Source: a virus. From it: a stretch of DNA of 45,149 bases. The DNA is taken from positions 1 through 45,149 of the IMG/VR virus record IMGVR_UViG_3300035492_000074. One strand, written 5' to 3'. This document shows, one piece after another, positions 2,703-31,300 of the stretch. The notes under the pieces are model-generated. The model was not told the origin of the DNA. It was given only the letters and a program-made list of their open reading frames with translations, and made no database searches. Made by a program: the position numbers and the translations under genes. Positions within the stretch are counted from its first letter, which is position 1, and each line of letters starts with the position of its first letter.

Positions 2703-4895
2703 TCATTCCTTCACCCACACTTTCACGTTGCGCCCACCCACCCGACGCACCCGACGCTCATACCCAAGCGCTGCCAGCACCGAGCCCAAGCGCATCTCAT
2801 CCCCACGTTTGATCCCCTTCGGGTCCATCCGCAGCGCGCCCACCATGATCTCGTGCGAGTGCAGCGGCCGATCACCGTTATGGCTCTCAGTCAGGTCGTC
2901 GAACTCGGCCAGCCACTCGCGCACCACCTCCTCCCAGCTGTCGGTGATCCGGTACTGGTCGTGCTCTGCACCGGCTAGACGTTCGGCCTCCTGCCACAGC
3001 ACGCCGCACGCCGTCCACCGCTCGCGGGCCTCGGCCCACAGCTGCAGCCTGTCGCGCTCGACCGCGCCCACGTCGGCCTTCGGAGCATCCTCGCCCACAT
3101 CGACACCGGCGCACTCCAGCGGCAGCCACCGGCGATTGCCCGTGTCATCGGCCAGGAACTCATGCCGGTTGGTGGTGCCGATGAACAGCAGCCGGCGGGG
3201 GAAGTTGGTGGCGAACTCGCGGTACTTGGGAATCCAGTTCTCGTAGCGGCGGGTGATGAACGCCTTGACGGCCTCCACCTCGCGGTTGTGCAAGCCCTTC
3301 AGCTCGCCCAGCTCCGCCACGAGCTTGCCGCGCATCAGCCTCGACATGTCGTCATCGCGCACCGACAGGTCCAGCTCGGTGAAGAAGTCGTGGTGCGGCA
3401 CGATGGCGGCCACCGCCGACGACTTGCGCAGGCCCTGCGGGCCTCGCAGGATCGGCACCATGTCCGCCTTGCAGCCTGGGTCGAGCACGCGCCCAGCCAG
3501 CGCCGTCCAGGTGTACAGGCCAACCGCCCGAGCGTAGGGCGTGTCCTCGGTGCCGAACACCCGCGGGTAGAACGTCTCGATGCGCTCGACGCCATCCCAG
3601 GCAGGCACCTCGTTCTCCAGCCACAGCTGGGCGCTATCGAAGCGGTTCTCGTCAGCCCGCAGGCCGACCGCCTCCTTCAGCAGCTCCACGCCCAGCGCCA
3701 GGCCCTTGCCCTCGAGCTGCAGCCGCAGCCTGGCGTAGTCGGCGTCGCGGAAGGCACGCCACTCGGTCTTGCCGGCCGGCGTCAGCATCAGCTCATCGCG
3801 GAACTGGTCCTGCGCGATGTCCACCCCGCACCAGGCCGGCGCCCTGAGCGCCAGCATGGCGTTGCGCAGGTTGGTGAGGATCTTGCCGCTCTCCGGGTTG
3901 CGCACGAACATCGGCATCTCGCCGGGGTTCTCGACCTCGCCCTCTGGCGTCTCGACGATCTCGAACTGGGCAGCCACAGCGCCGATGGCCTCGATGAAGT
4001 CACCGTCGTTGCGGTTGGTGCAGTGTGCGTGCAGGCACTTGAAGTGCCCCCGATCGAATCCGCCCACGCCCTTGGGCATGTACTGGGTGGCGGTGTCGTC
4101 AGCGCTCGGGCCTGAGTGCTCGTGCTCGAACGGACAGGTGATGTTCAGGCGGCCGTCGTGCGACTCGCTGAGCACCCATCCGTTGTCGGCCAGGAAGGTG
4201 GCCACGTCATCCTCGACGTCCACCTGGCGCCGCGCCTCGCGCAGCGCTCGGCCCTCGCCCAGCACGACCACCTCCTCGGTGGCGAACTTGTGCATCAGCT
4301 CGGCCCAGCAGGCCTCGAACGCCTCGACGCTGACCTCCGGGAAGTCGTACGGCGTGCCGTCCGCCCACTCGTAGCGCGCACCCTTTGGGTGAGTGCCGCA
4401 GGCGATGAACTGCTGCCCGCCGGCCAGGAACTCGATGGCGCCGTTGGCGGTCTTCAGGATGCGCTTGGTGAAGCTGCCGGGTAGCGTGAACGCCATCAGG
4501 CACTTGGCACTGTCGCCGCGCGTGCGGGTAGGCAGCTCACCCAGGTGCCGGCCGACGATCTCGACGATGCGGCGCACGGTGTCCGCATCGTCAACGTCCA
4601 CATCGAGCGCCCGCACGACGCGAGTCTGGATGCAAATGCCGAGATCCGGGTTGTTCTGCCAGCGGTCGATGTCTCGCGCGGTGCTGGTCTTGAGCGTCCA
4701 CTTCGCGATGCCCACCACCTCGCCGTTGCCGTTGAACAGGCTGGGCACCTTGCCCAAGGCTTTGAGCTTGGAGTCTGGCGAGACCCGCGCCCCAGGGTTG
4801 GAGACCACAGGCAACAGGTCTTCGGTCAGTCCGGCGACGTCGGCGAGCATGGCCCAGTCATCCGGTGTTGCGCCCCACTGCTTAGAACTGGTCAT
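2703..4895 (-). CDS. Bifunctional DNA primase-polymerase / VirE(D5)-type helicase
   Basis: 730 aa. The N-terminal prim-pol-like region has the acidic motif VRALDVDVDD. A Zn-binding stretch reads CPFEHEHSG...GHFKCLHAHC. The C-terminal VirE-like region has the P-loop ILRGPQGLRKSS. Confidence 0.85.
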   Translation of the reverse strand: MTSSKQWGATPDDWAMLADVAGLTEDLLPVVSNPGARVSPDSKLKALGKVPSLFNGNGEVVGIAKWTLKTSTARDIDRWQNNPDLGICIQTRVVRALDVDVDDADTVRRIVEIVGRHLGELPTRTRGDSAKCLMAFTLPGSFTKRILKTANGAIEFLAGGQQFIACGTHPKGARYEWADGTPYDFPEVSVEAFEACWAELMHKFATEEVVVLGEGRALREARRQVDVEDDVATFLADNGWVLSESHDGRLNITCPFEHEHSGPSADDTATQYMPKGVGGFDRGHFKCLHAHCTNRNDGDFIEAIGAVAAQFEIVETPEGEVENPGEMPMFVRNPESGKILTNLRNAMLALRAPAWCGVDIAQDQFRDELMLTPAGKTEWRAFRDADYARLRLQLEGKGLALGVELLKEAVGLRADENRFDSAQLWLENEVPAWDGVERIETFYPRVFGTEDTPYARAVGLYTWTALAGRVLDPGCKADMVPILRGPQGLRKSSAVAAIVPHHDFFTELDLSVRDDDMSRLMRGKLVAELGELKGLHNREVEAVKAFITRRYENWIPKYREFATNFPRRLLFIGTTNRHEFLADDTGNRRWLPLECAGVDVGEDAPKADVGAVERDRLQLWAEARERWTACGVLWQEAERLAGAEHDQYRITDSWEEVVREWLAEFDDLTESHNGDRPLHSHEIMVGALRMDPKGIKRGDEMRLGSVLAALGYERRVRRVGGRNVKVWVKE

Positions 4896-11660: not shown

Positions 11661-11927
11661 ATGACCGATAAGCCGAAGTTCGGGGTCGTATCAACCCTCC
11701 CGGTTAAGCCCAAGCAGACTGTGCCGGAGCGCCTGCGCGCCCTGGCCGACCAGATCGACGCTGGCGAATACGGCGCCGTCGAGGACTGCATCCTGATCTG
11801 GGCGGGCGACCGCACCACAGCCGACTGCGGCGACCTGTCCGCGTCCGAAGCCTATTTCCTGCTGTCGATCATAACCCGCCAGATTCTCGACAACACCCTG
11901 TACGGTGCGCAGGAGGATGGGGAGTGA
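11661..11927 (+). CDS. Hypothetical protein (88 aa)
   Basis: RBS AAGAGGA. The stop overlaps the polymerase GTG start (GTGA). Confidence 0.7.
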   Translation: MTDKPKFGVVSTLPVKPKQTVPERLRALADQIDAGEYGAVEDCILIWAGDRTTADCGDLSASEAYFLLSIITRQILDNTLYGAQEDGE

Positions 11928-14900
11928 CCGACTTCAAGCACATCCTCTGGGCGGACACGGAGACGTACTGCGAGACGCCCATCTCCGCCGGCCTGCACCG
12001 GTACGCCGAGAACGTCGAGGTGATGCTGTTCCAGTGGGCGCTCGATGACGGCGAGGTCTACGACCACGACTTCACCGAAGACCCGCGCATGCCGAAGGAA
12101 CTGCGCGAGATGCTGCTCGACCCGTCGGTGCAGCTCCGGTTCCACAACGCCGCCTTCGACCGCACCGTGATCCGCTGGGGCCTCGGCCTGGACATCCCGG
12201 TGGAGCGCTGGTTTTGCACCATGTCTCAGGCCTACGCGCACTCGATGCCGGGATCGCTCGACAAGCTCGGTGAGGCGCAAGGCCTGGAGGAGGATCAGCG
12301 CAAACTGAAGATCGGCAGCCAGCTAATTCAGCTATTTTGCAGGCCAAGGCCTAAGAACCAGACCCTGCGCCGCGCCACCCGCATCACGCACCCGGTGGAG
12401 TGGGCGCAGTTCCGAGCCTACGGCAAGCAGGACGTCGCGCAGATGCGCGACAGCTCCAAGCGGCTGCCGACGTGGAACTACCGCGGCCAGGAGCTGGCGC
12501 TGTGGCACCTCGACCAGCGGATCAACGACCGCGGCGTGGCTATCGACCTGGACCTGGCGCACGGCGCCGTTGAGACGGCCGAGCGGGAGAAGCGCGAGCT
12601 GAAGCGACGCGGCCAGGTAATTACCAACGGCGAGGTGGAAAGCCTCACCAAGCGCGACCAGCTGCTCGCCCACCTGCTGGCCGAGTACGGCGTCGACCTA
12701 CCGGACCTGCAGAAAGCCACGCTAGAACGCCGGATCGACGACCCGGATCTGCCGGAGGCGTTGAAGGAGCTGCTGCGCATGCGCCTGGACGCCACCACGA
12801 CATCGGTGGCCAAGTACAAGACCCTGCTCAAGGCCGTGTCCTCCGACGGTCGCCTGCGCGGCGTGTTGCAGTTCTGCGGCGCTGCGCGGACTGGCCGCTG
12901 GGCCGGCCGGGTGTTCCAGCCGCAGAACCTCCCGCGGCCAAGCCACAAGCAGCGGGAGATCGATCAGTCCATCGCGCTGACCAAAGCCGGCGCCCTGGAC
13001 CTGGCCTATGCCGACGTGATGGCGCGGCTGTCCTCCTGCGTGCGCGGCGCCATCATCGCACCGGAAGGGCGCAAGCTGGTCATCGCTGACTTGTCCAACA
13101 TCGAGGGCCGCACCCTGGCATGGCTCGCCGGCGAGGAGTGGAAGCTGCAGGCGTTCCGCGACTTCGACGCCGGCGTCGGGCATGACCTCTACGCGCTGGC
13201 CTACGCCAAGGCGTTCGGCGTGTCGCCGGAAGCGGTTATGGACAACAAGGAGTACGGCGACGGCAGCTGGCGCCAGATTGGTAAGGTGATGGAGCTGGCG
13301 CTCGGCTACGAAGGTGGCGTCGGCGCGTTCCTGACCTTCGCCGCGGTCTACGGCATCGACCTTGAGGCGATGGCCGATCAGGCTGCCGCGGCGATCCCCA
13401 AGGACGTGTGGGGCGAGGCTCGCGGGATGCTCGAGTGGACGAAGAAAAAGAGGCGCAGCACCTTCGGCCTGTCCGACCGGGCCTGGCTGGTGTGCGAGTC
13501 GTTCAAGCGGCTGTGGCGCTACGCCCACCCGGAGACGACTGCGTTCTGGAAGGAACTCGACCAGACCGTGCGCGCCGCCACCGGCTCGCCGGGTGTCACC
13601 CTGCCATGTCGCCGCCTCAAGATCCGGCGTGACGGGAGCTGGCTGCGCATCGCCCTGCCATCCGGCCGTGCGCTCTGCTACCCGTCGCCGAAGATCGACG
13701 ACAAGGGCCGCATCAGCTACATGGGCGTCCACCAGTACACCCGCAAGTGGACTCGGTTGCACACCTACGGCGGTAAACTTTGTTTAGCCTTTGATACAAA
13801 AGTGCTAACGTGCTCTGGCTGGGTTGCAATCCAGCAAGTAACGGCCGCGCACAAGGTGTGGGACGGCGTCGAGTGGGTTGAGCAGGACGGCATGGTGTGC
13901 AACGGAGAGGCCGAGGTGATCCAAGCGCACGGCGCGTGGATGACGCCAGACCACGAAGTCCTGACGGATGAGGGTTGGAAAATTGCATCACAGAGCGAGA
14001 GATATAACCGGGCAGCGTGTCGGCTACCTGACGGCGTTGCGCTACCACGGGTCGAACAGCGGGAAGAAGTCCGTGTGGGTGATGCTCTGCGACTGCGGAG
14101 CGGAGAAGTTGATGGACGCATCGGAATTCTTGAAGCAGGGCAAGAGGGGAATATTGGCGTCCTGCGGCTGCATGCGGAAGCGGTCTATCGGCCAGCGGAA
14201 CACCTCGCACGGGATGTCAAGGCATCCGGCGTTCGCGGTGTGGTCGAGCATGCTTGCCCGGTGCAGTCGTCCGACGCATGCGGCGTTCAAGAACTACGGC
14301 GGGCGTGGGATCTCGGTGTGCCCGGAGTGGGCGGAGTCGTTCGAGGCGTTCTGGGCGGACATGGGGCCGACCTACAAGCCGGGGTTGACGCTGGATCGGG
14401 AGGACAACGACGGGAATTACACGCCGACAAACTGCCGTTGGGCTACGCACACCACGCAGGCCAGGAACAGGCGGAGGTCGAGGGTTGTGCAGACGCCCTG
14501 GGGCGAGATGTCGACAGCGGAGCTGTCCGAGCGCACGGGGTTGGGCATGTCGACGATCTATTACCGGCTGGCGCGCAACGTAACGCCGGAGCAGCTGGTG
14601 GCGGAGCCCGACGTATCGCGCAGGTTTATGACCTCGTGAACTGTGGCCCACGCAACCGGTTCGTGGTTGCTACGCCGGATGGTCCGCTGATCGTCCACAA
14701 CTGCGAGAACGTCACCCAGGCCGCTGCGCGCGACGTGATGGCGCACGGCATGCTGCTCGCCGACCCGGCTGGGTACGAGATCCTGCTCACGGTCCACGAT
14801 GAGTTGATCACAGAAACCCCGGACACCGACGAGTTCACGGTCGACGGCTTGGCCGGGTTCATGGCCACCGTGCCGGATTGGGCGCCAGGGCTGCCGCTCG

Positions 14901-14941
14901 CCGCGGCTGGGTTCGAGACTGATCGGTATCGCAAGGACTGA
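11924..14941 (+). CDS. Family A DNA polymerase (3'-5' exonuclease plus polymerase), interrupted by an in-frame intein (13781..14701)
   Basis: The Exo I motif is ILWADTETYCE. The polymerase motifs are LVIADLSNIEGR (A), RQIGKVMELALGYEGG (B) and LLTVHDELITE (C). The extein junction is ...HTYGGKL|intein|CENVTQAAARD. Without the intein the protein is 698 aa. Confidence 0.85.
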   Translation: MTDFKHILWADTETYCETPISAGLHRYAENVEVMLFQWALDDGEVYDHDFTEDPRMPKELREMLLDPSVQLRFHNAAFDRTVIRWGLGLDIPVERWFCTMSQAYAHSMPGSLDKLGEAQGLEEDQRKLKIGSQLIQLFCRPRPKNQTLRRATRITHPVEWAQFRAYGKQDVAQMRDSSKRLPTWNYRGQELALWHLDQRINDRGVAIDLDLAHGAVETAEREKRELKRRGQVITNGEVESLTKRDQLLAHLLAEYGVDLPDLQKATLERRIDDPDLPEALKELLRMRLDATTTSVAKYKTLLKAVSSDGRLRGVLQFCGAARTGRWAGRVFQPQNLPRPSHKQREIDQSIALTKAGALDLAYADVMARLSSCVRGAIIAPEGRKLVIADLSNIEGRTLAWLAGEEWKLQAFRDFDAGVGHDLYALAYAKAFGVSPEAVMDNKEYGDGSWRQIGKVMELALGYEGGVGAFLTFAAVYGIDLEAMADQAAAAIPKDVWGEARGMLEWTKKKRRSTFGLSDRAWLVCESFKRLWRYAHPETTAFWKELDQTVRAATGSPGVTLPCRRLKIRRDGSWLRIALPSGRALCYPSPKIDDKGRISYMGVHQYTRKWTRLHTYGGKLCLAFDTKVLTCSGWVAIQQVTAAHKVWDGVEWVEQDGMVCNGEAEVIQAHGAWMTPDHEVLTDEGWKIASQSERYNRAACRLPDGVALPRVEQREEVRVGDALRLRSGEVDGRIGILEAGQEGNIGVLRLHAEAVYRPAEHLARDVKASGVRGVVEHACPVQSSDACGVQELRRAWDLGVPGVGGVVRGVLGGHGADLQAGVDAGSGGQRRELHADKLPLGYAHHAGQEQAEVEGCADALGRDVDSGAVRAHGVGHVDDLLPAGAQRNAGAAGGGARRIAQVYDLVNCGPRNRFVVATPDGPLIVHNCENVTQAAARDVMAHGMLLADPAGYEILLTVHDELITETPDTDEFTVDGLAGFMATVPDWAPGLPLAAAGFETDRYRKD
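13781..14701 (+). mobile_element. Intein (307 codons) in the polymerase gene
   Basis: It starts with Cys (CLAFDTKVLT, block A). Block B is MTPDHEVLTDEGW, block F-like is VYDLVNCGPRNRFVVA, and it ends LIVHN followed by the +1 Cys (block G). Local GC and codon usage differ from the flanking polymerase sequence. Confidence 0.8.
13968..14639 (+). CDS. HNH/AP2-like homing-endonuclease-type ORF nested inside the intein in the +1 frame
   Basis: 223 aa. Motifs are [10 protein letters not shown]...CDCG...SCGC...[11 protein letters not shown]...[57 protein letters not shown], a family common as phage endonuclease-like ORFs. Third codon positions are G/C-rich in this frame, whereas the polymerase frame here is G/A/R/V low-complexity. 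The ORF fills the gap between intein blocks B and F exactly. Confidence 0.7.
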   Translation: [223 protein letters not shown]

Positions 14942-14943
14942 TG

Positions 14944-14973
14944 TTGCTCAGCCGGTTAAGCATCTGCTAAAGT
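14944..14973 (+). promoter_or_regulatory. Internal sigma70-like promoter with the palindromic element (TTGCTC-18-TAAAGT)
   Basis: It begins 3 nt after the polymerase stop. The spacer contains TTAAGCATCTGCTAAAG. It lies 24 nt upstream of the VRR-NUC ATG. Confidence 0.45.
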
Positions 14974-14996
14974 ACAGGCTCAAGAGGGTTAACCGA

Positions 14997-15311
14997 ATGC
15001 GTGAACGGGATATTGAGCAGCACCTCGTAAAGCGGGTGAAAGCCGAGGGCGGCGAGGTGCGCAAGATCCAGTGGATCGGCCGCCGCGGCGCACCGGATCG
15101 GTTGGTGCTGCTGCCGCTGCGGGTCTTCGACTGGGGCGATATGGGCGAGAGACCCTACCCACGGCAGCCCGAGGCGATTTTTGTGGAGCTGAAGGCGCCC
15201 GGTAAGAAGCCGGAGCCGCACCAGGAAAGAGAACACCAGCGCCTCCGGGCGATGGGTCAACGGGTCGAGGTGATCGACTCAATAGAAGGCGTAGAGAGGC
15301 TATTGCAATGA
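14997..15311 (+). CDS. VRR-NUC domain nuclease
   Basis: 104 aa. Motifs are GAPDRLVLL ... IFVELKAPGKKPEPHQ (PD-(D/E)XK of VRR-NUC type). RBS is AGAGGG. Confidence 0.75.
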   Translation: MRERDIEQHLVKRVKAEGGEVRKIQWIGRRGAPDRLVLLPLRVFDWGDMGERPYPRQPEAIFVELKAPGKKPEPHQEREHQRLRAMGQRVEVIDSIEGVERLLQ

Positions 15312-15502
15312 GAACACTTAGCGAGCAAGAACGCGAAGACATGCTGCTGGATTTTGCCGAGCGGGCGATGGCGGCGCTGATCCCCACATTCGGCGAGTTC
15401 GTCGAGCCGCGGCGCAACGTGATTGCGCACAAGGCCTTCCTAATGGCCGATGCTATGGTGACGGCCTACGAGCAACGCAACTGGGAGCACCCGACATGCT
15501 GA
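15308..15502 (+). CDS. Hypothetical protein (64 aa)
   Basis: ATGA overlap with the VRR-NUC stop. Confidence 0.6.
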   Translation: MRTLSEQEREDMLLDFAERAMAALIPTFGEFVEPRRNVIAHKAFLMADAMVTAYEQRNWEHPTC

Positions 15503-15648
15503 CCTATCCGCTGATGCACGAGCCGGGCACCCTGCCCTTCCATCAGATGCTTGCCCAGCTGCGCAAAGGCGTCACCCGCGGCGACATGCAGGAGCTGGCC
15601 CTGGAGAAGTTCCGCCGCGAGATGAAGCAGCGGGGTGGCTTGGATTGA
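15496..15648 (+). CDS. Possible small ORF (50 aa)
   Basis: Translated by hand: MLTYPLMHEPGTLPFHQMLAQLRKGVTRGDMQELALEKFRREMKQRGGLD. The ATG overlaps the upstream stop (ATGCTGA), and third positions are GC-rich. Confidence 0.45.
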   Translation: MLTYPLMHEPGTLPFHQMLAQLRKGVTRGDMQELALEKFRREMKQRGGLD

Positions 15649-15812
15649 CCGAGCTGCAGAAGCGCGTCCGCGCATTCACCGGCGAGCAGCGGGTCATCCC
15701 CTGCTCGCACGACCACAAGCTGCAAGGCACCGGCGTCTTCTACCAGAGCGCCGGTCTTATCCAATGCGCCACCTGCAAGGGCTGGCAGATTATCCGCAGG
15801 CCAATCGAATGA
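15645..15812 (+). CDS. Possible small zinc-ribbon-like ORF (55 aa, TTG start)
   Basis: Translated by hand: (L)TELQKRVRAFTGEQRVIPCSHDHKLQGTGVFYQSAGLIQCATCKGWQIIRRPIE. There is a TTGA overlap with the upstream stop and an ATGA overlap with the next gene. GGGGTGG lies 5-6 nt upstream. Confidence 0.4.
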   Translation: MTELQKRVRAFTGEQRVIPCSHDHKLQGTGVFYQSAGLIQCATCKGWQIIRRPIE

Positions 15813-19597: not shown

Positions 19598-22336
19598 TTA
19601 CTCGACCGGCGCCTCAAGAGACGCAACGCGCGCACGAAGCTCCTGTACCTCCTTGATCAGCAGAGGGACAAACTTGCTGTAATCGACCATGAACTGATCT
19701 GTCTCGGTGACAGCTCGCGGGTAGACCTCAGCAACCTGCTGCGCGACCACGCCCCAGTCTTCGTGGCTACCGTCGGCAAGCCAGTCGTATTGCACGACCT
19801 GAATTGCATCAATCACGACGGAGGCGCTGTCAGCTTCCTCGATGTTCTCTTTCAGGCGGCGATCAGATGAAGTGGCGTAAGTGGTGGCGGTAGCAGAAGT
19901 AGAGATGCCGCCGACCTTTCCGTTCGGGTTGTAAAACTCCAGATGATCGCGCGCCGCCGTGCTATTACGGCTCGACTTCAAGCTGGTAGTGGTTACGTCC
20001 ACCTCCTTACCGCTCGTTGTACCGCTCACGTCAAAGGCGCCCACGCCAAGTGTGAGTCCGGTACTAGACCACTTTAGCGCGCGGTTACCGGCGATGGTCA
20101 CCGAAAAATCATCGTTAGCTAGCGCAATGCTACTACCACCATTTGCAGAGACCAGCTTGATGTAAGGGGACGTGGTTCCACCTTCGCCACGAACGGACCC
20201 GAGCAGTGCTGATCCGCCCAGGAATGTTTGCGCCACATACTCGCCAGACGTGTTTGAGCGAACACGATCACCCCGAATAATGGAAGGCGTGGCTGTGCGA
20301 GTGTCTCCGGGGAATCCAGGGTTATACTTCCAGCCTCCATCCAGCCAAGTGTTGTTGCCCGCTGCACCAGCGTAGTCATCGTCTTTGTTGTGCCGGAAGC
20401 TGCGGATAGTGTTGCGATTACAAGCAGCACCAAGCACCACTTCACGAGCGGTGTTTTGTTGCTCACAGTAGATAGTCAAGTCACTGCTTCGCAACTTTTT
20501 GATATCCATGCCGGGGGATACACCATCTAGCGCAGCGTTTTCCGAGTACCAAAACCCTTTCCAGTCGCGACCCATAAAGTCAGCAGAGGTTGCGATGCCT
20601 GAACCCCAGGTGAACTGCATAAACAGGTTGATTTCGCAGACGCTGAAGTCATCCTGCGTACCCTCGAAATAAACCCCGCGACCGCCCCACCAACCCCAAA
20701 GGGCGTCGATGTTGGTCTTGTTCATGTTGCCGGCGCAGGTGAAGCGATACAGGTCACCCTGGTGATACTGGCAGATGATCTTTCCACGGATGCGAATGCG
20801 CGCGCTGTTGAACCATACGCCGTGAGCGTTCGGGTTTGCCGGGGGCACAGCACCAGGCAGGGTCGGATCATAGAAGCCGGCACCAGTGCCGCGCAGATAA
20901 AGCGTCCCCTCAAGATCGAAATAGTCTGCGCCCCCTTGGATTTCAATACCTACGCCATCGAAGTCTTTCTGAATCTCACAACCGTCGCTGTAGACATTCA
21001 GCCCGTCGAGTCGGATGGTTCTGCTGATTTTGTAAACCGTATTTGGCAGGTATAGCACTTTGTCTGTACCGGCCAGCGCTGCCAGAGCGGCATCGCAAGC
21101 GTCGGCGATGTCGCCGCCAGGCACAGCGCCGAAGGATTCGATGCTAACCTTTTCGCCGTAGAAGCCGCGCAATGTCGAGCCGTTCAGCCCAATCATGCCG
21201 CTCGCGTCTAGCGACAGCTCCTGCCGCAGCTTGTCGTCGCTTGGGACCAAGGACGAAACCACCACCTCTATGTTGTCCGTGCCTGCCGGGGGCGCCTCGT
21301 CGAAGATCAGCACGTCGCCGTTAGCGCCACCTAGATCGTAGGTGTTCTTCTGCTGGTATACGCCCGAGATGAATACGTTGGTGATGCCCTCAGACTCCGG
21401 CGCGTAGTCGAGCAGGAACTCGGTCTCCACGCCATCGCCCGAAAGGTTCTGCACTGTCACAGCGCCAGTCACGGACTCGCGCCAAGCGCTGCCGTTGTAG
21501 GCGCGCATTGCGTTGGTGACGGTGCTGAAGTACAGGTCGCCTACCTGCAGCGGGGAGCCGTCGCGCCGGGTGGTTGGGTCGGTCGCGCTGGGGCCGTAGT
21601 AAACCCCGGAGAAGTTCGACAGATCGGTGATGTTGTCCGCAACGGTGTTCACGTCCGCGATGTTGCCCGCGACGGTGTTCACGTCGGTAATGCTGCCGGC
21701 CACCGTGTTCACGTCGGCGATGTTGTCCGACACGGTGTTCACGTCGGCGATGTTGTCCGCCACCGTGTTTACGTCCACGATGTTGTCGGACACCGTGTTG
21801 ATAGCCACCAGCGCGCCAACCACGCCGTTGACGGAGGCGATGTCCGGCCCCGCAACCGGCTCGCCGGTGGCTTCGTCGAAGGCCAGCACCGTTCCGGCAC
21901 GCGCAGATCGCCCAGGCAGATCGCCCACTGGCCCATCGCTCAGGGGGAACTTGAGGGTGCGGCTGACCACCGATGCAAGCTGCTGCAGCAGGATCGTCAG
22001 TCGGTCGAGCGCGGAGTTGATGACGCGGGGGTAGAAGCCGCCCTGGTTGGTCAGGTCAACCGGTTGCAGCATCTCCAGCGCGGAGGTGAGGGTGAGCCGA
22101 GTGCCGGTTGCGAGCGGGTTGGCCAGCACGACGCTGCCGCCAGGGGCTGCGTTCTGGTCGGCGTTCAGGGTGACCGTGTAGTCGGTCCCCAGCTCGAGGT
22201 CGGTCTCAACGGCGCCTGTTTCGGCGACCACCCGCACCTCGTCCGCGTCGAAGACTTTGAAGGTGAAGGGGAAGAATACGGTGGAGTCGTTGCCATCAAA
22301 AGGCCCCGCGACTCGTGTTTCGGAATTGATGGTCAT
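19598..22336 (-). CDS. Tail fibre/tailspike with a beta-helix-like centre and a C-terminal intramolecular chaperone (peptidase S74-like)
   Basis: 912 aa. The conserved N-terminal adaptor reads MTINSETRVAGPFDGNDSTVFFPFTFKVF.... Six decapeptide repeats DNIxDVNTVx follow. The central region (FGAVPGGDIADACDAALAAL...) resembles pectate-lyase-type spikes. The C-terminus SSDRRLKENIEE...VVQYDW...DYSKFVPLLIKEVQEL is the self-cleaving chaperone signature. Confidence 0.85.
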   Translation of the reverse strand: MTINSETRVAGPFDGNDSTVFFPFTFKVFDADEVRVVAETGAVETDLELGTDYTVTLNADQNAAPGGSVVLANPLATGTRLTLTSALEMLQPVDLTNQGGFYPRVINSALDRLTILLQQLASVVSRTLKFPLSDGPVGDLPGRSARAGTVLAFDEATGEPVAGPDIASVNGVVGALVAINTVSDNIVDVNTVADNIADVNTVSDNIADVNTVAGSITDVNTVAGNIADVNTVADNITDLSNFSGVYYGPSATDPTTRRDGSPLQVGDLYFSTVTNAMRAYNGSAWRESVTGAVTVQNLSGDGVETEFLLDYAPESEGITNVFISGVYQQKNTYDLGGANGDVLIFDEAPPAGTDNIEVVVSSLVPSDDKLRQELSLDASGMIGLNGSTLRGFYGEKVSIESFGAVPGGDIADACDAALAALAGTDKVLYLPNTVYKISRTIRLDGLNVYSDGCEIQKDFDGVGIEIQGGADYFDLEGTLYLRGTGAGFYDPTLPGAVPPANPNAHGVWFNSARIRIRGKIICQYHQGDLYRFTCAGNMNKTNIDALWGWWGGRGVYFEGTQDDFSVCEINLFMQFTWGSGIATSADFMGRDWKGFWYSENAALDGVSPGMDIKKLRSSDLTIYCEQQNTAREVVLGAACNRNTIRSFRHNKDDDYAGAAGNNTWLDGGWKYNPGFPGDTRTATPSIIRGDRVRSNTSGEYVAQTFLGGSALLGSVRGEGGTTSPYIKLVSANGGSSIALANDDFSVTIAGNRALKWSSTGLTLGVGAFDVSGTTSGKEVDVTTTSLKSSRNSTAARDHLEFYNPNGKVGGISTSATATTYATSSDRRLKENIEEADSASVVIDAIQVVQYDWLADGSHEDWGVVAQQVAEVYPRAVTETDQFMVDYSKFVPLLIKEVQELRARVASLEAPVE
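21629..21808 (-). repeat. Six tandem 30-bp coding repeats in the tail fibre gene
   Basis: Units start at 21629, 21659, 21689, 21719, 21749 and 21779 (GATGTTGTCCGCnACGGTGTTCACGTCnnC on the + strand). They are imperfect and encode (V/A/S)(D/G)(N/S)I(V/A/T)DVNTV. Confidence 0.9.
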
Positions 22337-22396: not shown

Positions 22397-25300
22397 CTAG
22401 CGGCCGGTTGCTATCCCGATGCCCATCTCGGCTGCAGACTGTGGGTCTTTGCGACCTGACTCGACGTCGAACAGGTAACCACCAGCCCGCGCCACCGGCG
22501 CTACCGGCAGTCCCGTGCCCAAGCCCAGCAGGGTGAGCAGGCTGCGGAACTCGGTCTTCGTGAACTCCTCGTCGAACACCTCGCCGGTGAGGATCGCTGC
22601 CAGCCCCTTGCCCGCGGATTCTCCCGCGGACAGCGCGGGGCCGACGTTGAGGCGGTCGTTCCACACTCGGCTATCGGACTGGTTGGCGACCAGCACCGCG
22701 CCGTGCCCCGCGATTGGGATCATCGTGGCCAGCGACTTGGCCTGGCTGCCGAAGAACATGGCCAGCCACTCATCCAGCAGTCCGTCGCCGTCCTCGTCAT
22801 CCTCGTCGTCCGGGGTGCCCTGGGAGATCAGCTCGGCGACGAACGCCGGGATCGCGAGGCCGGCGAACCAGATGAACATCAGCCGCGGGCTCGCCCGTAC
22901 GAAACCGGCCTCGCGCACCGCCTTGTTCGCCTCGTTGCCGATCAGGTTGCCCCACATGTTGAAGTAGCCGTAGAACTGGGTGAACAGCCGCACGAAGGGC
23001 GATTGCACCTCGAACGCCGAGATGTCCTCCGGCGCGAAGCTGCCCTGCGTCGTGCGCACCGTCTCGTCCGCGTAGCGGCGCGCCTCCTTCTCGGTGGCCC
23101 CCTGTGCGATGGCGTGGTCGTAGCCCCCGGTCCAGATGATCGGGTCCATCACGTTCTGCATGGCCTGCTGCAGGAAGTAGGCATGGCGGCGCACGAAGTC
23201 GGTGAACTGCTCGTACGGGTTGGGGTTGGTCAGGATCTGGTCGATCTGGTCCTGCATCGCGTAGGACTGGTTCGCCATCCGCTCAGCCAGCCAGGGCGAG
23301 CGCTCGCCCACCTGCTGGCGCATCTTGAGCGGATGGGCCAGGTAGCTGGCGGTGGCGCGCAGCAGCTTCGGCGCCGGCACCTTGAGTGCGGCCAAGCTAA
23401 ACCCGGTGAGCTGCTGCAGGGTGTTCACGATGTTGCCGAACATGAACAGCAACCCGGTGCGGCTGCGCAGCCCGTTGAAGAACCGGTTCATCTTCGGGTT
23501 CTTACCAGGCATCGATGCGCTCTGCCGCGCGGTGCGCTGCAACCATGGGGTCAACATGTCGCTGATCGCGCCAGGGCTCGCGCCGTTGAGCGCGCGGGCG
23601 ACCCGCTTGTTGCCCATCAGCTGAGCCACGTCCCTGATCGCGGGCTCGAGGTAGGCGAAGCGCGACACCTTGTCGAGATGCTGGCCGATGGCCCGCAGGT
23701 CCAGCTCAAGCGGCTTGTTGTAGAAGACGCGCGACTGGGTGAACCCTTTGCCGGTGGTCGGGAACATGAACGAGTTGCCAGCGTGCAGCAGCTCCTCCTG
23801 CTCGCGCTTCTGCGCCATATCCGGCGAGGACAGGCTATCGGCCAGCGCCGGGACGTAGCCGCCACGGTAGGTGCCGAACGGGGTGTTGATCGGGTCCGCG
23901 GTCACTTCGTTGAAGTAGTAGCCGTACATCTCCTTGTGCGCGGCCTGGGCGTCTTTCTTCACCGTCTCCAGCAGATCCCACACGCCCTGCGCGAAGTCGA
24001 AGTCGGCCTTGGTCAGCACGCCCTCGTTGATCATCCGGGTGATGAACTGGTCCCACTTGCTGGTGTCCAGTTGCCCGTTGGCGTCGAGCGTGCCCCAGCC
24101 TCGGCCGAGCAGCAGCTTGGTAAGGTTCGACTGGTTGCCGCTGTGCAGGACCGCGTGTAGCAGCTCGGACTTGCCCGCGTTGAACACGAAGCCGGTGGGG
24201 CCCAGCTCGGGCGCGTCGATCTTGTTGTAGGTGATGCCCTTCTCGATGGACTTGAGCAGGTCGCGGTACTGTGCCACCAGGGCGTTGCGCTTGTCGCGCA
24301 TGATGGTGGTCGCCTCGGACACCGGCTGCCAGATGTAGCGTTTGAACGCCGGGCCCCAGTTGTCGGCCCAGGTCTCCACGCGAGTCAGACTGGCCTTCGC
24401 ACTCAGCAGCGAGGCCTTCCACTTGTCCAGGCCGGTCGGCGTCCCGGTGTAGCCTGGCAGCGGCGGAATGGTGCCGCCCGAGCGCTCGGTCACAATGGCC
24501 ACCAGCTCGTCGGCGATTGCGTCGATGTCGACCTTTTGCCCGTCGATCTCCATCTGGCGGGTGCGGCGCGACAGGTAGTAGAGGCCGTTGACCACGTCGC
24601 GCATTCCGCGGAACTGCTCGACCGTCAGGTCGCGGAAGTCCACCGACGGCGGCAGGCCCTGCAGGATCGACTTGATGTCGGCGGCCATCGCGCCGTCGTA
24701 GTTCTCCAGCAACTGCTGGTAGGCCTGCGCGTTGGCGGCGCTGGTGTTCGGCGCCAGGCCGTAGCGGGCGAGCACGGCGCGAGCGGCGGTGACCATCGCG
24801 ACGTCGCGCGACTTGGCCAGCTTCTCGTTGGTGCCCTTGAAGATCTTCTTGAACCCGGCCAGGGCCTTGTCGTGCTCCTGTTGCGCGCGGCGCTGCGCCC
24901 GCTCCAGTTGCACCTGCAGGATCTCGGTGCGCTTGGCTTGAGCGGCTGCCGCGGTATCGCCGGAGGCCATCGCCTTCTCCGCGGCCTTGCGGGCGCGGGC
25001 GGCGCTGGCAGCGGCCAGATCCGGGCGTAGGTTGCGCACGGGCTTCGCGGCCACGATCTGCTCAGCGGCCTGGCGCGCGGCACGGGTCAGGGCCGCCGGC
25101 GAGCCGGTTGCCTTGGTCACGGCCTTGAGTTCGGTTGCGACGAGCCGCGAGCGGGCATCGTTGGCCAGCGCCTCGTTGGCGGCCTCGGCCATCGCCTCCG
25201 GCGAGGAGATGTCGCCGTGGCGCTCCAGCATGCGCTGGTCGGTCATGCCTTCGATCACGCTGGCCTTCGGCTCAGCGTTCAGCAGCTCGGTGACCAGCTG

Positions 25301-28300
25301 GCGCCCGGAGCGGAAGCCGAACATCTCGGCCACGGTGTCCGGGTGCAGGCCCGCGTCGGACAGCATGCCATACTTGCCGTAGCCCAGCTTGCGCCACTCG
25401 ACACCGGTGCCCAGCTCGCCCTCCGGGTACATGCGCTCCAGCTCGGTGATGTTCAGTTTCGCGGCCTTGGTGACCTCGATCTGGATCTGCGAACCGTCCT
25501 CGTCGGTGAGGCTGCCGAACTTCAGGAACTCCATCGCCTTGTAGATCGGCTGCTCGTTCACCTCCGCAGTGACCTCGTCGCGCACGGCCTTGCGCAGCGC
25601 CTGGGCAGCCTTCTGCAGCTCCTTGAGCTTGCGGCCTCGGGCGTTGTCCAGCCACTTCAGATCGCGCAGCGTGCGGGCCTGCAGCTCCTCGATGGCCTCG
25701 GCCTGTTGCTCCTGCAGCGTGGCCTGGTACTCGGCCCACGCCTCTGGCTCCATCCCGGCGTCTTCAGCGCTGCGGAACAGCGGCTCGAACTGACGCACGG
25801 CTTGCGCCGCGGCGATGGCCTCGTCGGTGGCGATCATCCGGTCGAAGACCGCGGCCACCTCCGGGTTCAGACTCGCGCGCTCGTTGGTGGCGAGCATCTG
25901 CTGCAGGCTGCGGTAGACGCTGATCAGCCAGGAGCGGAAGCGGCGGAACACGCTCTGCAGCTCTGCGCTCGGGGCCTTGCCCTCGAACAGGTACTGCTCG
26001 AACGTCTCGGCAATCGTCTCGTGCGCTTCTCGGCGCGCGTTGAGCGGCTGAGCCAGCCACTCAGCCGCGGTGCCGGTGTATCCAACGTGGTCGAGCAGCG
26101 TCTGCATGTCGGCGACGACCTCTGCCGGCGCGTTGGGCTGCGCGGCTAGCGTGGCCTGCATCTCGAAGAAGAAGTGCCCGGTCTCGTGCAGGAAGCTGGA
26201 GAGATCCGCCTTCTCTAGCAGCGCGATGTTCAGCGTGCTGGGGTTGAATGTGGCGCGTGCCTGGCCGGGTTGGTTGAGGATGTTCGGGTCAGCTGGATCG
26301 AACCCGCCGGTGTTGCCGATGGCGGACTTGATCTGGGTCGGGTCGAAGACAACGATCTCGCGTCCGCGGATGGCATTCTTAGCGTCGGAGTGCTTGACGC
26401 CACCCTTACGGCTGATCGCGTCGTTGCGGATTAGGGCGTCGTAACCCTGCTTTTCCACTTCCGAGACGTAACCCTCCGGCAACGGGGCTCCGAGCGGGAT
26501 ATTGGTCCTGATCGGCTCGTCGCGCTCGAGCGGGTTCTCCGCCCGAACATAGAGCGGCATCACGTTCTTCTGGAACGGTTGGTTGGGCTTGCCGTCGACC
26601 CAGCCGAACTCGTCGTACCGGTCAAGATACCGGCTTGCCATCTCGGGGTTGTCGGTTACCGAGATGCCGCTAACGCCTGTGTAGCCCATGAACTGGCCGT
26701 GCTTGTCGAACACCTGCTTATCGTCCAGGGTGGAGTGATAGACAACCAAGGGGCGCCCCTGGTCATCCACGATCTTGCTGTCGCCGAACCAGCGCCAGAA
26801 GGCCTGAATGCCCTCTTCGGTCTGGCTCAGCGGCGCGCCGTTGCTGTTTGTTGTTGGCCGAGCAATGCCCTCCACGAGGATTGTGTCGGTCTGCGCCGAC
26901 TGGTTGAACACGTCGCCCTGCTCTGCCTCGTCGGCGACACGCCCCTCGGTCCAGGTCCACTCCGGCATCAGGCCGGTCTTCTGGTCGGCGAACACGGTGT
27001 CCTCCACCTTGGCGGTGCGGTTCTGCTCGCCGTAGGGGCCGTAGTTCAGCCAGCTGTTCTGGCCGCGGGTCTCCGTGGTGATCGCAGCGACCGCCGAACC
27101 GGTGAAGAGCCGGACGTGCGCCTGCCAGGCGTTCTCCTCGCCGCGTGCCCGAAAGCCTGCGCCCTCGAGGCCGTGGCCGAAGGCGTCGTGAACCGCGCGG
27201 AACAGGTCGTTGGCCAGCACACGCTTCGGCGGGCCATCCGGCGAGCCATAGGGCCAGGTCAGACCGGTGTCGGCCAGCAGGGGGTTGTCGTCGACGTTCA
27301 GCTCGGTGGCACCGCTGCCGAAGCCAGCCTCGGTGGCGAAGACGCCCATCCGCTGGTTGGCCCGCAGATCGCGCATGGCGTTCCAGGGGTTCCCGGCGTA
27401 TGGGTCGTTGGTCTCGTCCACAAGGTAGAACTGGTAGCCGGCGGTCTCGAGCGCTTTGTACTGCGCCATGGTCTGGCGGATCAGATTCTCGAACGCCTCC
27501 TTGACCACCGGGTCTTGAGGGGCGTGCGGCATCGCCTCGTAGGCGGCCGCGATGCGGGCGGCGCGCTCGGGGTCTACTTCGACGTATTGCGCCTGCCGGC
27601 GGAGCGGGATTCCGTTTTCGCGGGCGTACTGCTCTGCGACTGCGACGAGGCGGGGGTCCGGGCCGGTTGCGCCTTCAACAGTTGGCGCACCCTCAAGCGG
27701 CGCAAGGCTTCCGCTCGAATACCGTCCTGCTCGGTCTCCACCTGCTCTGGCACCTTGGGCATCGGTCAGCGCTCCTTGGTTGAAGATGGCGCGCTCGGCG
27801 GCTGCGGGGTCGACGCCTTCAGGCTCTGCTCGGGCTGCGAGGGCTTCGCGGACGAGCTGGGTCGCTTCGCGCCGCAGACTATCAGGCCGCCTTTGAGCGG
27901 ATGATTTGCCGGGAGCGGTTGCCCCGTCCTGTTGATCACTGGCATAGCCGTACTCACTCTTCTGCGGGAAAGCGGAATAGACCTGATCGACGTGAATCTG
28001 GAATTCGTCGCCCAGGTGTTCGTTGATCCTACCCGCCAGATCCTCGTTGGACAGAGCGGAATAGTTCAGGATAGTCATCTGGCCGTTGGCCGTTGTGTGC
28101 CCGCCGACCAGCGGCTCGCCGTTCTCCTGCAGCTCGAACAGGCGGTCGTAGAGCGCGGTGACCTCGTTGGCGCCATAACCCTCCGGCAGGGAGATCGTGA
28201 CCGCCCCTACCGGTTCGGTGCCGATGGCCTGGGTCTCGGTGACCACCATCATGCTGTCCTGCGCCAGCGCGTGGCCCAGCAGCTTGGCGGCCTGCACGGC

Positions 28301-31300
28301 CAGCTCCGGACGGTCCAGTCGCAGGGTCATCGACGGGTTGGTCGCGCCCAGGTAGCCGCCCAGCTGCATAACGAAGTCGCCGGTGGTGGAGAGTTCGGCC
28401 AGCACCTTCGGGACCACCTGGGCGGCCACCTGCTGGCTGATCTCCAGCCGCTCGGCGTCCGACAAAGCATTCCACTGCTCGGTGAGCGCAGCGTCGTTCG
28501 GGTCTGGGGCGACCTCGAACATCACGCGCGCCTCGGCCGCCTCACCGGCGCCAGCGTCGCCGCGCTCGTCGATGGCGCGCTGGGCGTCGCCCTCGTAGGT
28601 GCGGCCGGGCGTGTCGTTGAACTCGGCCTCGGTCCAAGTCGGCGGGGTGATGTGGCCGGCCAGCTTCACGATCTCGGCCTGGGCCTGCGCCTGGTCGATC
28701 TCGCCCGCCTTGTAGCGCTCCCAGATCGCATTGGCCGGAGCCTTCATCGCGTTCTTGCGCGGCCCCTCGAACAAGCCACGCACCGCTTCCCAGGTGATCG
28801 ACTGCATCTCGCGCGGCAGCAGACCGCGGGCCTCGGCCGCGCGCCGGTAGGCTTCCAGATAGATCGGGTAGGTGCCGGACAGGCCGGTGATGCTGGAGCT
28901 GGCCGAGCCCGCGCCGCCGAAGTTCTGGACGACCTCCAGATCCCCACCGGCGAGGGGGCGGAGCAGGGCGGCAGCCACGGCGTGGGTGTCGATGGTGGCG
29001 AAGCCCATCTCCGACTTCGGGTCGAAGATGTTGTTGTAGAAGTTGCGCACCTTGTGCTCGCGGCCGAGCTGGTGGAAGACGTTCTCGGCGCGCCCGTCCA
29101 GATAGATGGAGATGGCGGCGGCGATGTTGTCGTAGGTCTTCCAAGCCATCGTGGCCGGGTTGCCGCTCGCGGTGGTGCGCAGGCCTGCAGCGCCGCCCTC
29201 CGGGGTTAGCACGTTGAACGCGCGGCTGTTGTGGGTCTGGTCGAAGACGCGAACCCAGCGGGCGGCCAGGTCCGGCCGGTCGAGCAGTTCGGAGAGCTTC
29301 TTGCCTCGCGCCAGCTCCATCTTCGGGTCGGTCTTGTCGCCCAGAATCCGGTCGGCCTCGACGCTCATCGCGTCGTCCCACTGGAAGTCGCGCATGCCGA
29401 ACAGGATGTCGGCGGTGCGCTCGGCGGCGCTGACGTTCTGGAACCAGTCGTTCTGCGGGCTGAGCACGGCAATAGCCGCAGCGGCCTGCATCTCGGAGAT
29501 GCCGTACCGGTTGGCCCAGGCCTCAGCCATCTTGCGCCCGCCGTCGTACCAGAGCTTCGCGCGGTCGCGCTGCTCGGCTGGCATCAGATCGTGAAGGAAC
29601 AGCAGGTTATCGACGACGTGCTCCACGAACTGCTCGACGACCTTGGCCGGCTTGCGCGCCTTGGTCGGGCGCATGTTCGGCATGGCGCGCAGGGTTGCCG
29701 CGTTCTTGGCGAGCGTCTTCTCGTCAGCCAGCACCGAGGCGAAGTCGATAGCGAGCACGTTGGCCAGTGCATCCTCGGTGGCGCGCACGGCGCTGGGCAC
29801 ACGGGTGGACAGGGACTGGTTGAAGACCTCGCTGTTGCGGGCGTCGGCGATGATGTCGGCGCGGTAGCGCGGCTCGTTGCCCTCGAACATGCCAGTCGGG
29901 GCGAGCGTAGCGTACAGCTCCGGCTCGAGGCGTTCAGTCAGCTCGCCCAGGCGACTCGGCGCAATCTGACCGGCTGGCAGTCGGTTGCTCGCGTCGAGCG
30001 CATCGAGCGCAGCCTGCAGCGGGCTTCGCGCCTGCGCGGCGGCTTCGGCGGGGGCGGCACGTTCGGTGGTCGGCACGTTGTAGGCCGCCTCGCCCAGCAG
30101 CGCCACGACGCCGGAGGTTTTGCCGCCGCCCACGGCCATGACGCCTGGGACGTAGTAGCCGTCGAAGCCGGCGTCGAGCACAGCCTGCTCGCGCGCGTTG
30201 GCGTCCGCACCGGTCCAGATGCCGAGCGGGTCTTTGCCGGTGTCGTAGATGTTCGACATCGTGACGCCGTGCTCGACGCTGCCTACGCCCTGCTCCGGGC
30301 GCACGCCGGCGCCCTCGTCGACGTAGGCCAGCACGCGAGAGCGCAGCGGACTGTCCTCGGGCAAGCCAGCCAAACGTGCGCGCTCGGCGCCCTTCAACCC
30401 GGTGCCGAAGAAACGGCCATCGAGGACCGGCCGGCGGGTGGTGGAGAAGTGAACGCCCTGCACCGTGAGCGCGCCAGGTTTGGCCTCTGGTGTAACGCTG
30501 GAGGCGTACTGGTCCAACACCTGGGCTTGCTGCTGCCCTGGTGCGCGGGAGGTCACGGTCAGCGGAAACCGCGCGTACATCTCCTGCGGGGTGATGCCCA
30601 GCTTGCTGGCCTGCACCGCGTAGAAGTTGCGCACCAGCGTGGCGTAAGCCCGGTTCACGTCGGGGGTGAAGCGGCCCGCTTTGCTCAGCTCACCCATCAG
30701 GGTGTCGAATACGGCGTTGCTGCTGTCCTCCCAGGCCTGCGCCTCGGTCTGCTCGGCGAGCACCTTCTGCGCATCCTGCTCCAGCTGGGCCAGCAGCTGC
30801 GCACCCTCTTCCGCCTCGGCGGCGGTCCAGGCGTCTTCGGAGACGCGCGCGTTGCGCACGATCTCCTGCTCGAGCCCCGAGCCGGCGAAGGCTGCAGTGG
30901 CCTCGCCAATTGGAATGGCGACGGCGCCATCGGTGGCCAGCGCCTCTTCCAGCTGCTCCTGCACGCTCGGCAGGGACTGGGCGAGCTGCTCCGGCGTCAT
31001 GCCAGCGGATTCCAGCAGCGGGGCGAGCACGCGGGCGTCGATGAAGATCTCGGTGGGCGAGCTGCCGGAGTCTTCGGCGGCGCCCTGCACCAGCTGCGCA
31101 AAGGTCTGCGGGTCGCGCTGGCGGGTCATGCTGGCCGCGGCGGCGGTCATCAGGTCGGCCAGTTGCTGCGCGTTCTGGTTGGCGGTGTCGGCGGCGTACT
31201 GGTTGCGGTCCAGCGTACCGGCCAGGCGGCCGACGCCCTCGCCGATGGTGGCGAGCGTACCCGACTGCACCAGCGTCGCGAACGCTGTCTGGATAGCCGC

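Follow-up and report, generated by a model that had tools for sequence, protein, structure and literature searches.

The 45,149 nucleotides (nt) of viral DNA analyzed here, IMG/VR record IMGVR_UViG_3300035492_000074 at its full length (the window), contain a family A DNA polymerase gene that forms a single uninterrupted open reading frame (ORF) of 1005 codons on the plus strand (11924..14941). Inside this frame lies an insert with the sequence blocks of a class-1 intein, and inside the insert, in the +1 frame, a second ORF that resembles phage genes annotated as HNH endonucleases (Table 1). An earlier note on this DNA, made from the sequence alone, had read the interruption as 307 codons long with splicing blocks A, B, F, and G, and the nested ORF as 223 codons long, starting with an ATG after block B and stopping at block F; both readings turned out to be exact. 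The N-extein matched the Pfam families DNA_pol_A and DNA_pol_A_exo1 and the PHROG family phrog_17 (DNA polymerase, E 1e-97), and it runs colinearly with polymerases that lack an intein, those of Bordetella phage BPP-1 and an APSE-7 variant.

The spliced extein aligned gap-free to the BPP-1 polymerase (64%), to that of the intein-less APSE-7 variant (54%), and to further intein-less polymerases from Escherichia, Yersinia, and Xylella phages and from other APSE variants, which upholds the junction GGKL↓CEN drawn in the note (arrows mark the border between extein and insert). The intein-less junctions read TYGGKL-A-ENVTQAA and TYGGKI-I-ENICQAA, and the window reads TYGGKL↓C...HN↓CENVTQ. The Cys at position +1 was found only in intein-bearing alleles, the intein-less ones having Ala or Ile there, and must therefore have arrived with the insert. 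The insertion site is a highly conserved segment of the polymerase.

The catalytic set of class-1 inteins (C1, T55..H58, H306-N307, and C+1) is present in the insert and conserved in its relatives. [quoted passage not shown] A Foldseek search of this model against the PDB gave inteins or Hint domains as all of the top 40 matches (probability 1.00, best E 3e-4), among them the Ssp DnaB mini-intein, Mtu RecA, Npu DnaE, and class 3 DnaB. A word-indexed protein search with the same 307 residues returned only 13 matches, as the sequence is largely nonconserved. The insert is a class-1 intein, and from the conserved catalytic residues and the occurrence of the element in cultured phages we infer that it is spliced out of the protein.

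Table 1. Features of the polymerase gene, its insert, and the nested gene, in window positions
Feature	Position	Strand	Remark
N-extein, family A DNA polymerase (3'-5' exonuclease and polymerase domains)	11924..13780	+	Ends ...HTYGGKL
Class-1 intein, 307 codons, polymerase frame (Cys1 ... His-Asn)	13781..14701	+	Exact in-frame insertion; Hint-fold model
Splicing block A (CLAFDTKVLT), Cys1 nucleophile	13781..13810	+	Cys1 and ...VLT conserved in relatives
Splicing block B (TPDHEVLT; Thr55, His58)	13943..13966	+	T55 and H58 nearly invariant in the alignment of relatives
Intein-frame linker (double-coded stretch), ~219 codons	13967..14623	+	Nonconserved, predicted disordered, free of stops
Nested endonuclease-like gene, +1 frame	13968..14639	+	223 codons from ATG 13968; 218 from TTG 13983
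Shine–Dalgarno-like GAGGG	13970..13974	+	8 nt upstream of TTG 13983
Four-cysteine cluster (CDCG...SCGC; C41, C43, C66, C68)	14088..14171	+	In the nested protein
HNH-like beta-beta-alpha motif (LTLDREDNDGNYTPTNCRWATHTTQARN)	14385..14468	+	Arg144 at the general-base His position
C-terminal helix-turn-helix module, DNA-binding type	14484..14573	+	Pfam helix-turn-helix matches in family members
Splicing block F (VYDLVNCGPRNRFVVA)	14624..14671	+	V282, D284, G289, P290, R293, and F294 invariant in the alignment of relatives
Splicing block G (PLIVHN) plus C-extein +1 Cys	14684..14704	+	H306 and N307 nearly invariant
C-extein of the polymerase (CENVTQAAARD...LTVHDE...RYRKD)	14702..14941	+	Colinear with intein-less polymerases
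Intein-less polymerase site, nucleotide form			...ACCTACGGCGGTAAACTT-GCN-GAGAACGTCACC...

Constraint on the two overlapping frames

The ATG of the nested ORF overlaps the codons right after block B, and its TGA (14637..14639) lies within the first codons of block F. The two frames of the intervening segment differ in codon usage, as the note had correctly described. The nested frame has a guanine-cytosine (GC) content at third codon positions (GC3) of 0.85, made up of G3 0.56 and C3 0.29; the other genes of the window have GC3 of 0.88–0.90 and C3 of 0.45–0.52, and the intein frame over the overlap has GC3 of 0.55, with 45% of codons ending in A or T.

Relatives were retrieved by a search seeded only on the block A–B region, which gave 80 viral and 10 genomic loci. 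The comparisons below use 75 distinct elements in which the two ends of the intein share a frame and an endonuclease ORF is present; their GC contents are 0.43–0.65. For each, the synonymous codons of the nested ORF were shuffled and the stops counted in the intein frame. The intein frame contained no stop in any of the 75 loci, against ~8.6 expected from the shuffling, while the third frame had 14 on average and was never open; the claim that the intein frame is kept open thus holds well beyond the window. In the APSE loci, with a GC content of 45–47%, 8 stops were expected and the frame was open in 0/500 shuffles. For the window alone, 3.5 stops were expected and the frame was open in 1% of the shuffles (P ~0.01), with nine stops in the third frame. 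This by itself is weak evidence, since long spurious ORFs are typical of DNA with 65% GC: antisense or alternative-frame ORFs of 346 and 801 codons lie over real genes at 12722–13762 (-) and 29231–31636 (+), together with many others. The comparative stop test across the 75 loci is decisive. The endonuclease ORF was in the +1 frame in most of these loci, in the +2 frame in a distinct lineage, and never in frame 0.

The substitution patterns distinguish the two frames further. In 44 distinct +1 loci, nucleotide entropy was 1.16, 1.10, and 1.58 at the first, second, and third positions of the nested codons. The same nucleotides gave a mean pairwise amino acid identity of 43% when read in the nested frame, against 23% for the intein frame. 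Close pairs differed at 129, 149, and 434 sites by nested codon position, and the ratio of synonymous to nonsynonymous differing codons was 349:220 in the nested frame and 81:458 in the intein frame. Openness is thus the sole constraint on the intein frame, and the nested frame is constrained as a protein.

We consider the most likely explanation, with good though not full confidence, to be a class-1 intein in a family A polymerase of the podovirus type whose segment between blocks B and F is double-coded and whose nested gene likely is a homing endonuclease. In the polymerase frame, the segment would provide a disordered linker of ~200 residues constrained solely to be free of stops, which would let the full precursor be translated and then lose the whole insert by protein splicing. 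Read in the +1 frame, these nucleotides would give a separately translated protein of 218–223 residues with its own Shine–Dalgarno sequence and start. This protein would cut intein-less polymerase alleles in coinfecting phages, and the repair that follows would copy the intein and the nested gene as one unit. Splicing, translation of the nested gene, and homing are predicted steps of this cycle, and the nuclease activity is questionable because of a His-to-Arg change in the catalytic motif. The note had likewise seen a contiguous intein with an endonuclease gene of the free-standing type in its +1 frame, and the Hint fold, the open frame, and the free-standing occurrence of the nested family elsewhere agree with it.

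Relatives, derived forms, and genomic setting

The closest phage homologs of the nested protein (51–60% identity) all lie inside polymerase genes, in the Hamiltonella phages APSE-1/2/3/4/5/7, the Caulobacter phages GB2A, RW, RLK, and KcrB, and the Shewanella phage SFCi1, and in each of them the intein frame is open and the nested ORF is in the +1 frame. They include cultured, plaque-forming carriers: the Caulobacter phages were isolated on CB15 and SFCi1 on Shewanella fidelis. The homologs were reached by protein search, since megablast of window positions 13400..15000 against phage genomes gave no match. APSE populations hold both intein-bearing and intein-less alleles, a presence/absence polymorphism consistent with homing.

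The insertion positions in the polymerase are GGK↓C, GGKL↓C, GGKLxEN↓C, and GGKITENL↓C (window 13778–13783; loci L003, L014, and L037), and this sliding of the insertion point by one to four residues suggests either repeated adjacent invasions or migration of the boundary. Further places that carry the module are the GK...(LA/LG)↓CGYGGG segment, a TGRxGG site, and other genes. The +2 lineage, with the intein frame open, occupies GK...(LA/LG)↓CGYGGG (L005:1196–2053, L006:1715–2596, L045, and L053:1957–2799, with the further members L062, L069, L070, and L089:1784–2617), and some APSE-like contigs (L005) carry both inteins in one polymerase gene. Other copies reside in genes unlike the polymerase site (...ILTKGFD↓C in L061 and L072–L075; ...LQIS↓C in L016/L027/L034/L035; ...SLD.VT↓C in L051/L054), so the module has moved between host genes. 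The pairwise identities of the Hint and endonuclease parts covary (r = 0.70, Mantel test, reached by 0/999 permutations), which indicates that the two diverged together, and the +2 lineage forms a separate endonuclease subgroup.

The note had taken the arrangement for an intermediate between inteins fused to their endonuclease and split inteins with a free-standing gene between the halves. Split-intein relatives with the same endonuclease gene between the halves do exist (L044, L037, L067, and L082), and that part of the proposal stands. On the other hand, the double-coded state is conserved rather than fleeting, as it occurs in at least 75 distinct loci at several insertion sites and with two frame offsets. 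The split intein of L044:2537–3499 lies at GGKLxEN↓C, three residues downstream of the window's site and at a position shared with contiguous inteins of the SFCi1 type. Its intein frame has five stops and closes shortly after block B, its +1 gene remains intact, and a new Met directly precedes block F (MKVYDILNAGPRRRF); it looks like a split intein derived from the double-coded form. In L037:114–3736 (and also in L038, L043, L023, and L053), one polymerase gene carries a split intein upstream and a contiguous double-coded intein downstream; the split one sits at ...HTGRWGG↓C, with a free-standing gene of the same endonuclease family between its halves (ORFs 114–1034, 844–1671, and 1628–...).

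Two mini-inteins, of 128 residues in L048 (391–774) and 157 residues in L089b (3038–3508), keep the intein-frame pattern GW(Q/H).A(S/D)...R, where the 5' end of the nested gene overlaps, and this remnant marks them as internal-deletion derivatives and not as ancestral empty inteins. In a prophage of an Arsenophonus endosymbiont (L009/L085), the endonuclease is frameshifted and the polymerase C-extein has acquired a stop (CENICQAAA*). The changes relative to APSE are spread evenly over the codon positions (31/30/35), indicating neutral decay. Mini-inteins and a decayed prophage copy are the decay products expected of a homing cycle. A broader reading, to which we give an even chance, is that these loci form a large, old, and undescribed clade of phage inteins in which the endonuclease is always out of frame, the whole has spread as a unit, and split inteins and mini-inteins have arisen repeatedly. 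If this is true, a Hint domain and an endonuclease of free-standing type would be paired by overlapping coding in a stable manner, probably under selection, and not as a short-lived intermediate, and the endonuclease would represent a new intein-associated family with an Arg-substituted HNH motif.

The window is a podovirus-like phage genome of 45 kb with 65% GC. Its replication module comprises a primase/helicase, an exonuclease, the family A polymerase, a small endonuclease, and an SNF2-type helicase; its structural module comprises a tail fiber, a virion protein of 3347 residues, a tail tube, a portal/adaptor, and a terminase. The small endonuclease gene directly downstream of the polymerase (14997–15311) matches positions 352–439 of phrog_93 ("endonuclease," 613 profile positions), and positions 3–59 of the same profile match the N-terminal region of the intein (13781–14005); these two matches suggest that the profile was built from intein-containing members. 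The 3347-residue ORF (22397–32440, -) matches phrog_9880, a family of unknown function, with a score of 1346 and is probably a giant internal virion or ejection protein. The tail-fiber gene (19598–22336, -) has GC3 of 0.72 and T3 of 0.18, against GC3 of 0.88–0.90 elsewhere in the genome, which suggests a recent horizontal exchange of the receptor-binding module. The only other identical record found, a public JGI contig (L096), is 100% identical to window positions 13931..15653 and may share its source sample with the window.

The nested protein, its probable expression, and alternative explanations

The nested protein matched phrog_374 (E 1.4e-60) and phrog_3377 (E 1.2e-52), both annotated as HNH endonuclease, and contains all three motifs listed in the note (YGGRGISVCPEW, LTLDREDNDGNYTPTNCRWAT, and QARNRR). 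It has 7888 homologs at E<=1e-10 in the protein collection, and its family occurs free-standing in more than 1100 phage records. The AlphaFold2 model has a mean pLDDT of 88, and its fold matches in BFVD are phage proteins labeled "HNH endonuclease," "HTH homing endonuclease," or "AP2," with E down to 4e-21. The protein is built from an N-terminal beta region with four cysteines, a core LDRxDNxGxYxPxNCRWAT...Q..N, and a C-terminal helix-turn-helix. Across 40 homologs, C41 and C43 are invariant and C66 and C68 nearly so, and the model places a beta-hairpin and a helix at this cluster, a probable zinc-binding element. R144, N155, and N167 are invariant in the same homologs, the HNH-like motif being modeled as strands 141–144 and 156–159 and helix 161–166. 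The C-terminal module has helices 183–190 and 194–202, and the corresponding region of many family members matches Pfam helix-turn-helix families (best E 3e-6). Compared with the PDB, the family profile had its best match in I-HmuI (1U3E), exactly over the HNH motif and only marginal (E 0.19). A phmmer search of the PDB with the nested protein gave no match.

A start codon with a Shine–Dalgarno sequence was found at the 5' end of the nested gene in 39/44 loci, against a background of 10.6% in equivalent windows of the +1 frame of the upstream extein. It comes in two arrangements. In one, an ATG, GTG, or TTG at the position of window 13983 follows AAGG, GAAGG, or GAGG within (E/K)GW codons; in the other, an ATG lies 15 nt upstream of that position and the GAGG is inside the His-Glu-Val codons of block B. 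For the window, TTG 13983 with its GAGGG is a more likely start than ATG 13968. The nested stop is always within the first codons of block F. The stretch TGGAAA-NTG-CATCACAG (window 13953–13995) is almost invariant in four phages whose nested proteins are 51–60% identical to that of the window; double coding explains much of this, and an extra signal may be present as well. The idea of a regulatory RNA hairpin was discarded, as the nested start showed no significant structure (z-score -0.12) and no covariation. Gene callers either merge the whole locus into "DNA polymerase" or call a shortened nested ORF, and the endonuclease gene is therefore routinely missed in annotation.

Several observations weigh against the double-coded intein with a homing endonuclease as we propose it. 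The general-base His of the HNH motif is replaced by Arg144, which is invariant in the 40 homologs and in every relative that was inspected. The nested protein matched none of the nuclease models of Pfam or NCBIfam, and Foldseek found no significant solved nuclease in the PDB for the full nested model, so that the HNH assignment is not confirmable by fold. Pfam sequence models also fail to detect the Hint domain. The window's ATG 13968 has no clear Shine–Dalgarno sequence, and the start in the better position, a TTG, is weak. For all members, splicing, translation of the nested ORF, and DNA cleavage are predictions, and the counts of loci are not counts of independent events because the loci are phylogenetically related. 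The "HNH-type" label of the note is thus carried by the PHROG annotation and by a marginal resemblance to I-HmuI, and it is weak given the invariant Arg at the catalytic position; the profile searches that the note had proposed linked the nested ORF to two PHROG families but to no Pfam nuclease and the intein to no Pfam Hint domain.

The Arg substitution also speaks for a possibility in which the nested protein binds DNA, has a regulatory role, or helps another nuclease, and the element persists or moves by other means. Pfam recognizes only helix-turn-helix domains in the family, the nested protein has no match among solved structures, and our literature searches found no characterized member. 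The family nevertheless behaves like homing endonuclease genes, being found free-standing, between the halves of split inteins, and within inteins at many sites; purifying selection acts on intact copies, and decay sets in where the host gene has become a pseudogene; and its combination of a catalytic-type core with a helix-turn-helix matches enzymes of the I-HmuI and I-TevI types. We regard a nonnuclease as improbable, and the nested gene as most likely the homing endonuclease of the element. A very common phage "HNH" family of putative activity is hereby flagged as having an atypical catalytic motif.

The nested frame could also be reached by +1 ribosomal frameshifting, which would make a fusion of the N-extein, the N-terminal Hint part, and the endonuclease. 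The +1 ORF opens right after block B, as such a mechanism would need, and the nucleotide conservation around GGNTGGAAA-NTG-CATCACAG in four distant phages is very high. Independent internal initiation is more likely, since the start signals are conserved and occur at two alternative positions. The +2 lineages and the split-intein relatives express the gene family where no shift from the intein could do so, and no slippery motif was identified in a search that was not exhaustive. We consider frameshifting quite improbable.

Still less probable is an insert that does not splice and is tolerated as a surface loop, as has been proposed for ShiLan, or leaves the transcript as an RNA intron. HNH genes inserted out of frame and lacking splicing domains do exist (PMC11855218), but in the present family even deeply diverged members retain all intein catalytic residues and the Hint fold, and the insertion site lies in a polymerase segment that is itself highly conserved. 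A group I or II intron was rejected, as Rfam had no match at E<=1 for window positions 13400..15100 and the region has both an open frame and the Hint blocks.

An assembly or sequencing artifact, in which two compensating indels would hide an ordinary in-frame HNH intein, might be suspected in a metagenome-type assembly with a single identical record, maybe from the same sample. This reading is refuted for practical purposes. The same frames occur in isolates and assemblies that were sequenced independently (APSE-1 to APSE-7, four Caulobacter phages, SFCi1, a Parapusillimonas chromosome, and a Logan contig), the endonuclease is in frame 0 in none of the 75 loci, and the nested gene has start signals of its own and a stop inside block F. 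That high GC has left the intein frame open by chance in an interrupted or nonfunctional polymerase, as the GC-rich window with its spurious ORFs and modest shuffle P value might by itself allow, has next to no probability, since the layout is conserved in 75 distinct loci, the APSE frames are open at far lower GC, the third frame always has stops, and blocks F and G and the C-extein continue in the intein frame.

Comparison with known systems

The note did not recognize the arrangement as a described one. In this it was mistaken: according to later papers, Gorbalenya (1998, NAR 26:1741) had suggested for the Synechocystis DnaX intein that an endonuclease gene can lie out of frame or antisense within an intein, and examples were documented in 2025–2026 (10.1101/2025.01.02.630785; 10.64898/2026.09.14.751524). 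The double-coded intein of the window therefore belongs to an already described kind and is not categorically new. The cyanobacterial DnaX intein of Phillips et al. 2026 (10.64898/2026.09.14.751524) has a LAGLIDADG gene in a +2 ORF and shows frame-dependent selection. Like the element of the window, it is contiguous, the endonuclease slot uses a frame other than that of the intein, which stays open, mini-intein alleles coexist, and the endonuclease frame is under purifying selection, with relaxed selection on the intein frame. The two differ in that DnaX involves LAGLIDADG in the +2 frame of a bacterial dnaX, whereas the window involves a phage family with an HNH-like motif, a zinc-cluster, and a helix-turn-helix, mostly in the +1 frame, found in family A polymerases and other genes of phages and having split-intein relatives.

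Gosselin, Arsenault, and Gogarten (10.1101/2025.01.02.630785) proposed free-standing endonuclease genes invading inteins as the origin of such forms. Their noncanonical actinobacteriophage inteins resemble the present one in having the endonuclease gene in a nonsplicing frame and an in-frame middle without recognizable structure. They differ in that their out-of-frame case on the same strand is a short endonuclease VII-like gene in "frame 3," with the motif CVDHDH...CN, in actinophage genes, and in having Pol III alpha and not Pol A as the polymerase host; APSE and proteobacterial phages are not mentioned in that study. Identity of the two endonucleases was rejected, as the supplementary sequences of that work have the canonical CVDHDH motif.

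In the fractured genes of Dassa et al. 2009 (PMC2677866), the halves of split inteins are separated by free-standing genes of Vsr-like or GIY-YIG type. They share with our loci a free-standing-type endonuclease between Hint halves and short coding overlaps, the layout of L044, L037, L067, and L082; in contrast, the intein of the window is contiguous, its polymerase is one ORF, and the endonuclease belongs to another family. The out-of-frame HNH genes hidden in phage methylases, exemplified by ShiLan (Arsenault et al. 2025, PMC11855218), also leave the host frame open and raise the same question of how the hidden gene gets translated. They have no splicing domain, whereas the gene in the window is flanked by a complete Hint domain. 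I-HmuI, the HNH homing endonuclease of Bacillus phage SPO1, resembles the nested protein in motif (LVVDHKDGN...NLRWVT...N against LTLDRxDN...NCRWAT...N) and in its modular build of a core and a C-terminal DNA-binding helix-turn-helix; besides the marginal score of the match, it differs in having a His general base where the nested protein has Arg, and it is encoded in an intron and nicks DNA.

The closest counterpart is the ORF pair P45/P46 of APSE-1 (AF157835 / NC_000935), in GenBank since 1999. Its insert of 306 codons occupies the same site, TYGGK[S/L]↓C...HN↓CEN, with a +1 nested ORF 60% identical to that of the window, in another phage and host and at 45% instead of 65% GC. RefSeq labels a truncated P46, overlapping P45, "HNH endonuclease." The APSE "intein domain" is known to be differentially lost (PMC7313666), and PMC549080 cites van der Wilk et al. 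1999 for APSE-1. In the searchable literature, which excludes the InBase entry and the 1998/1999 papers, the APSE intein is mentioned and its double coding is not discussed; nor did the literature searched contain a description of this polymerase lineage or of this endonuclease family as intein-associated. What is new is the lineage, the endonuclease family, how many conserved cases there are and how deep their conservation goes, and the finding of contiguous, split, and mini forms side by side. The at least 75 loci, with cultured phages among them (Caulobacter phages, SFCi1, and APSE), provide a large comparative set for an architecture that recent work calls rare. Because the three forms occur at the same or neighboring sites, the route from an invaded intein to split inteins and mini-inteins becomes testable on a real series, and the same series offers a test of the view that in the origin of inteins the splicing domain came first.

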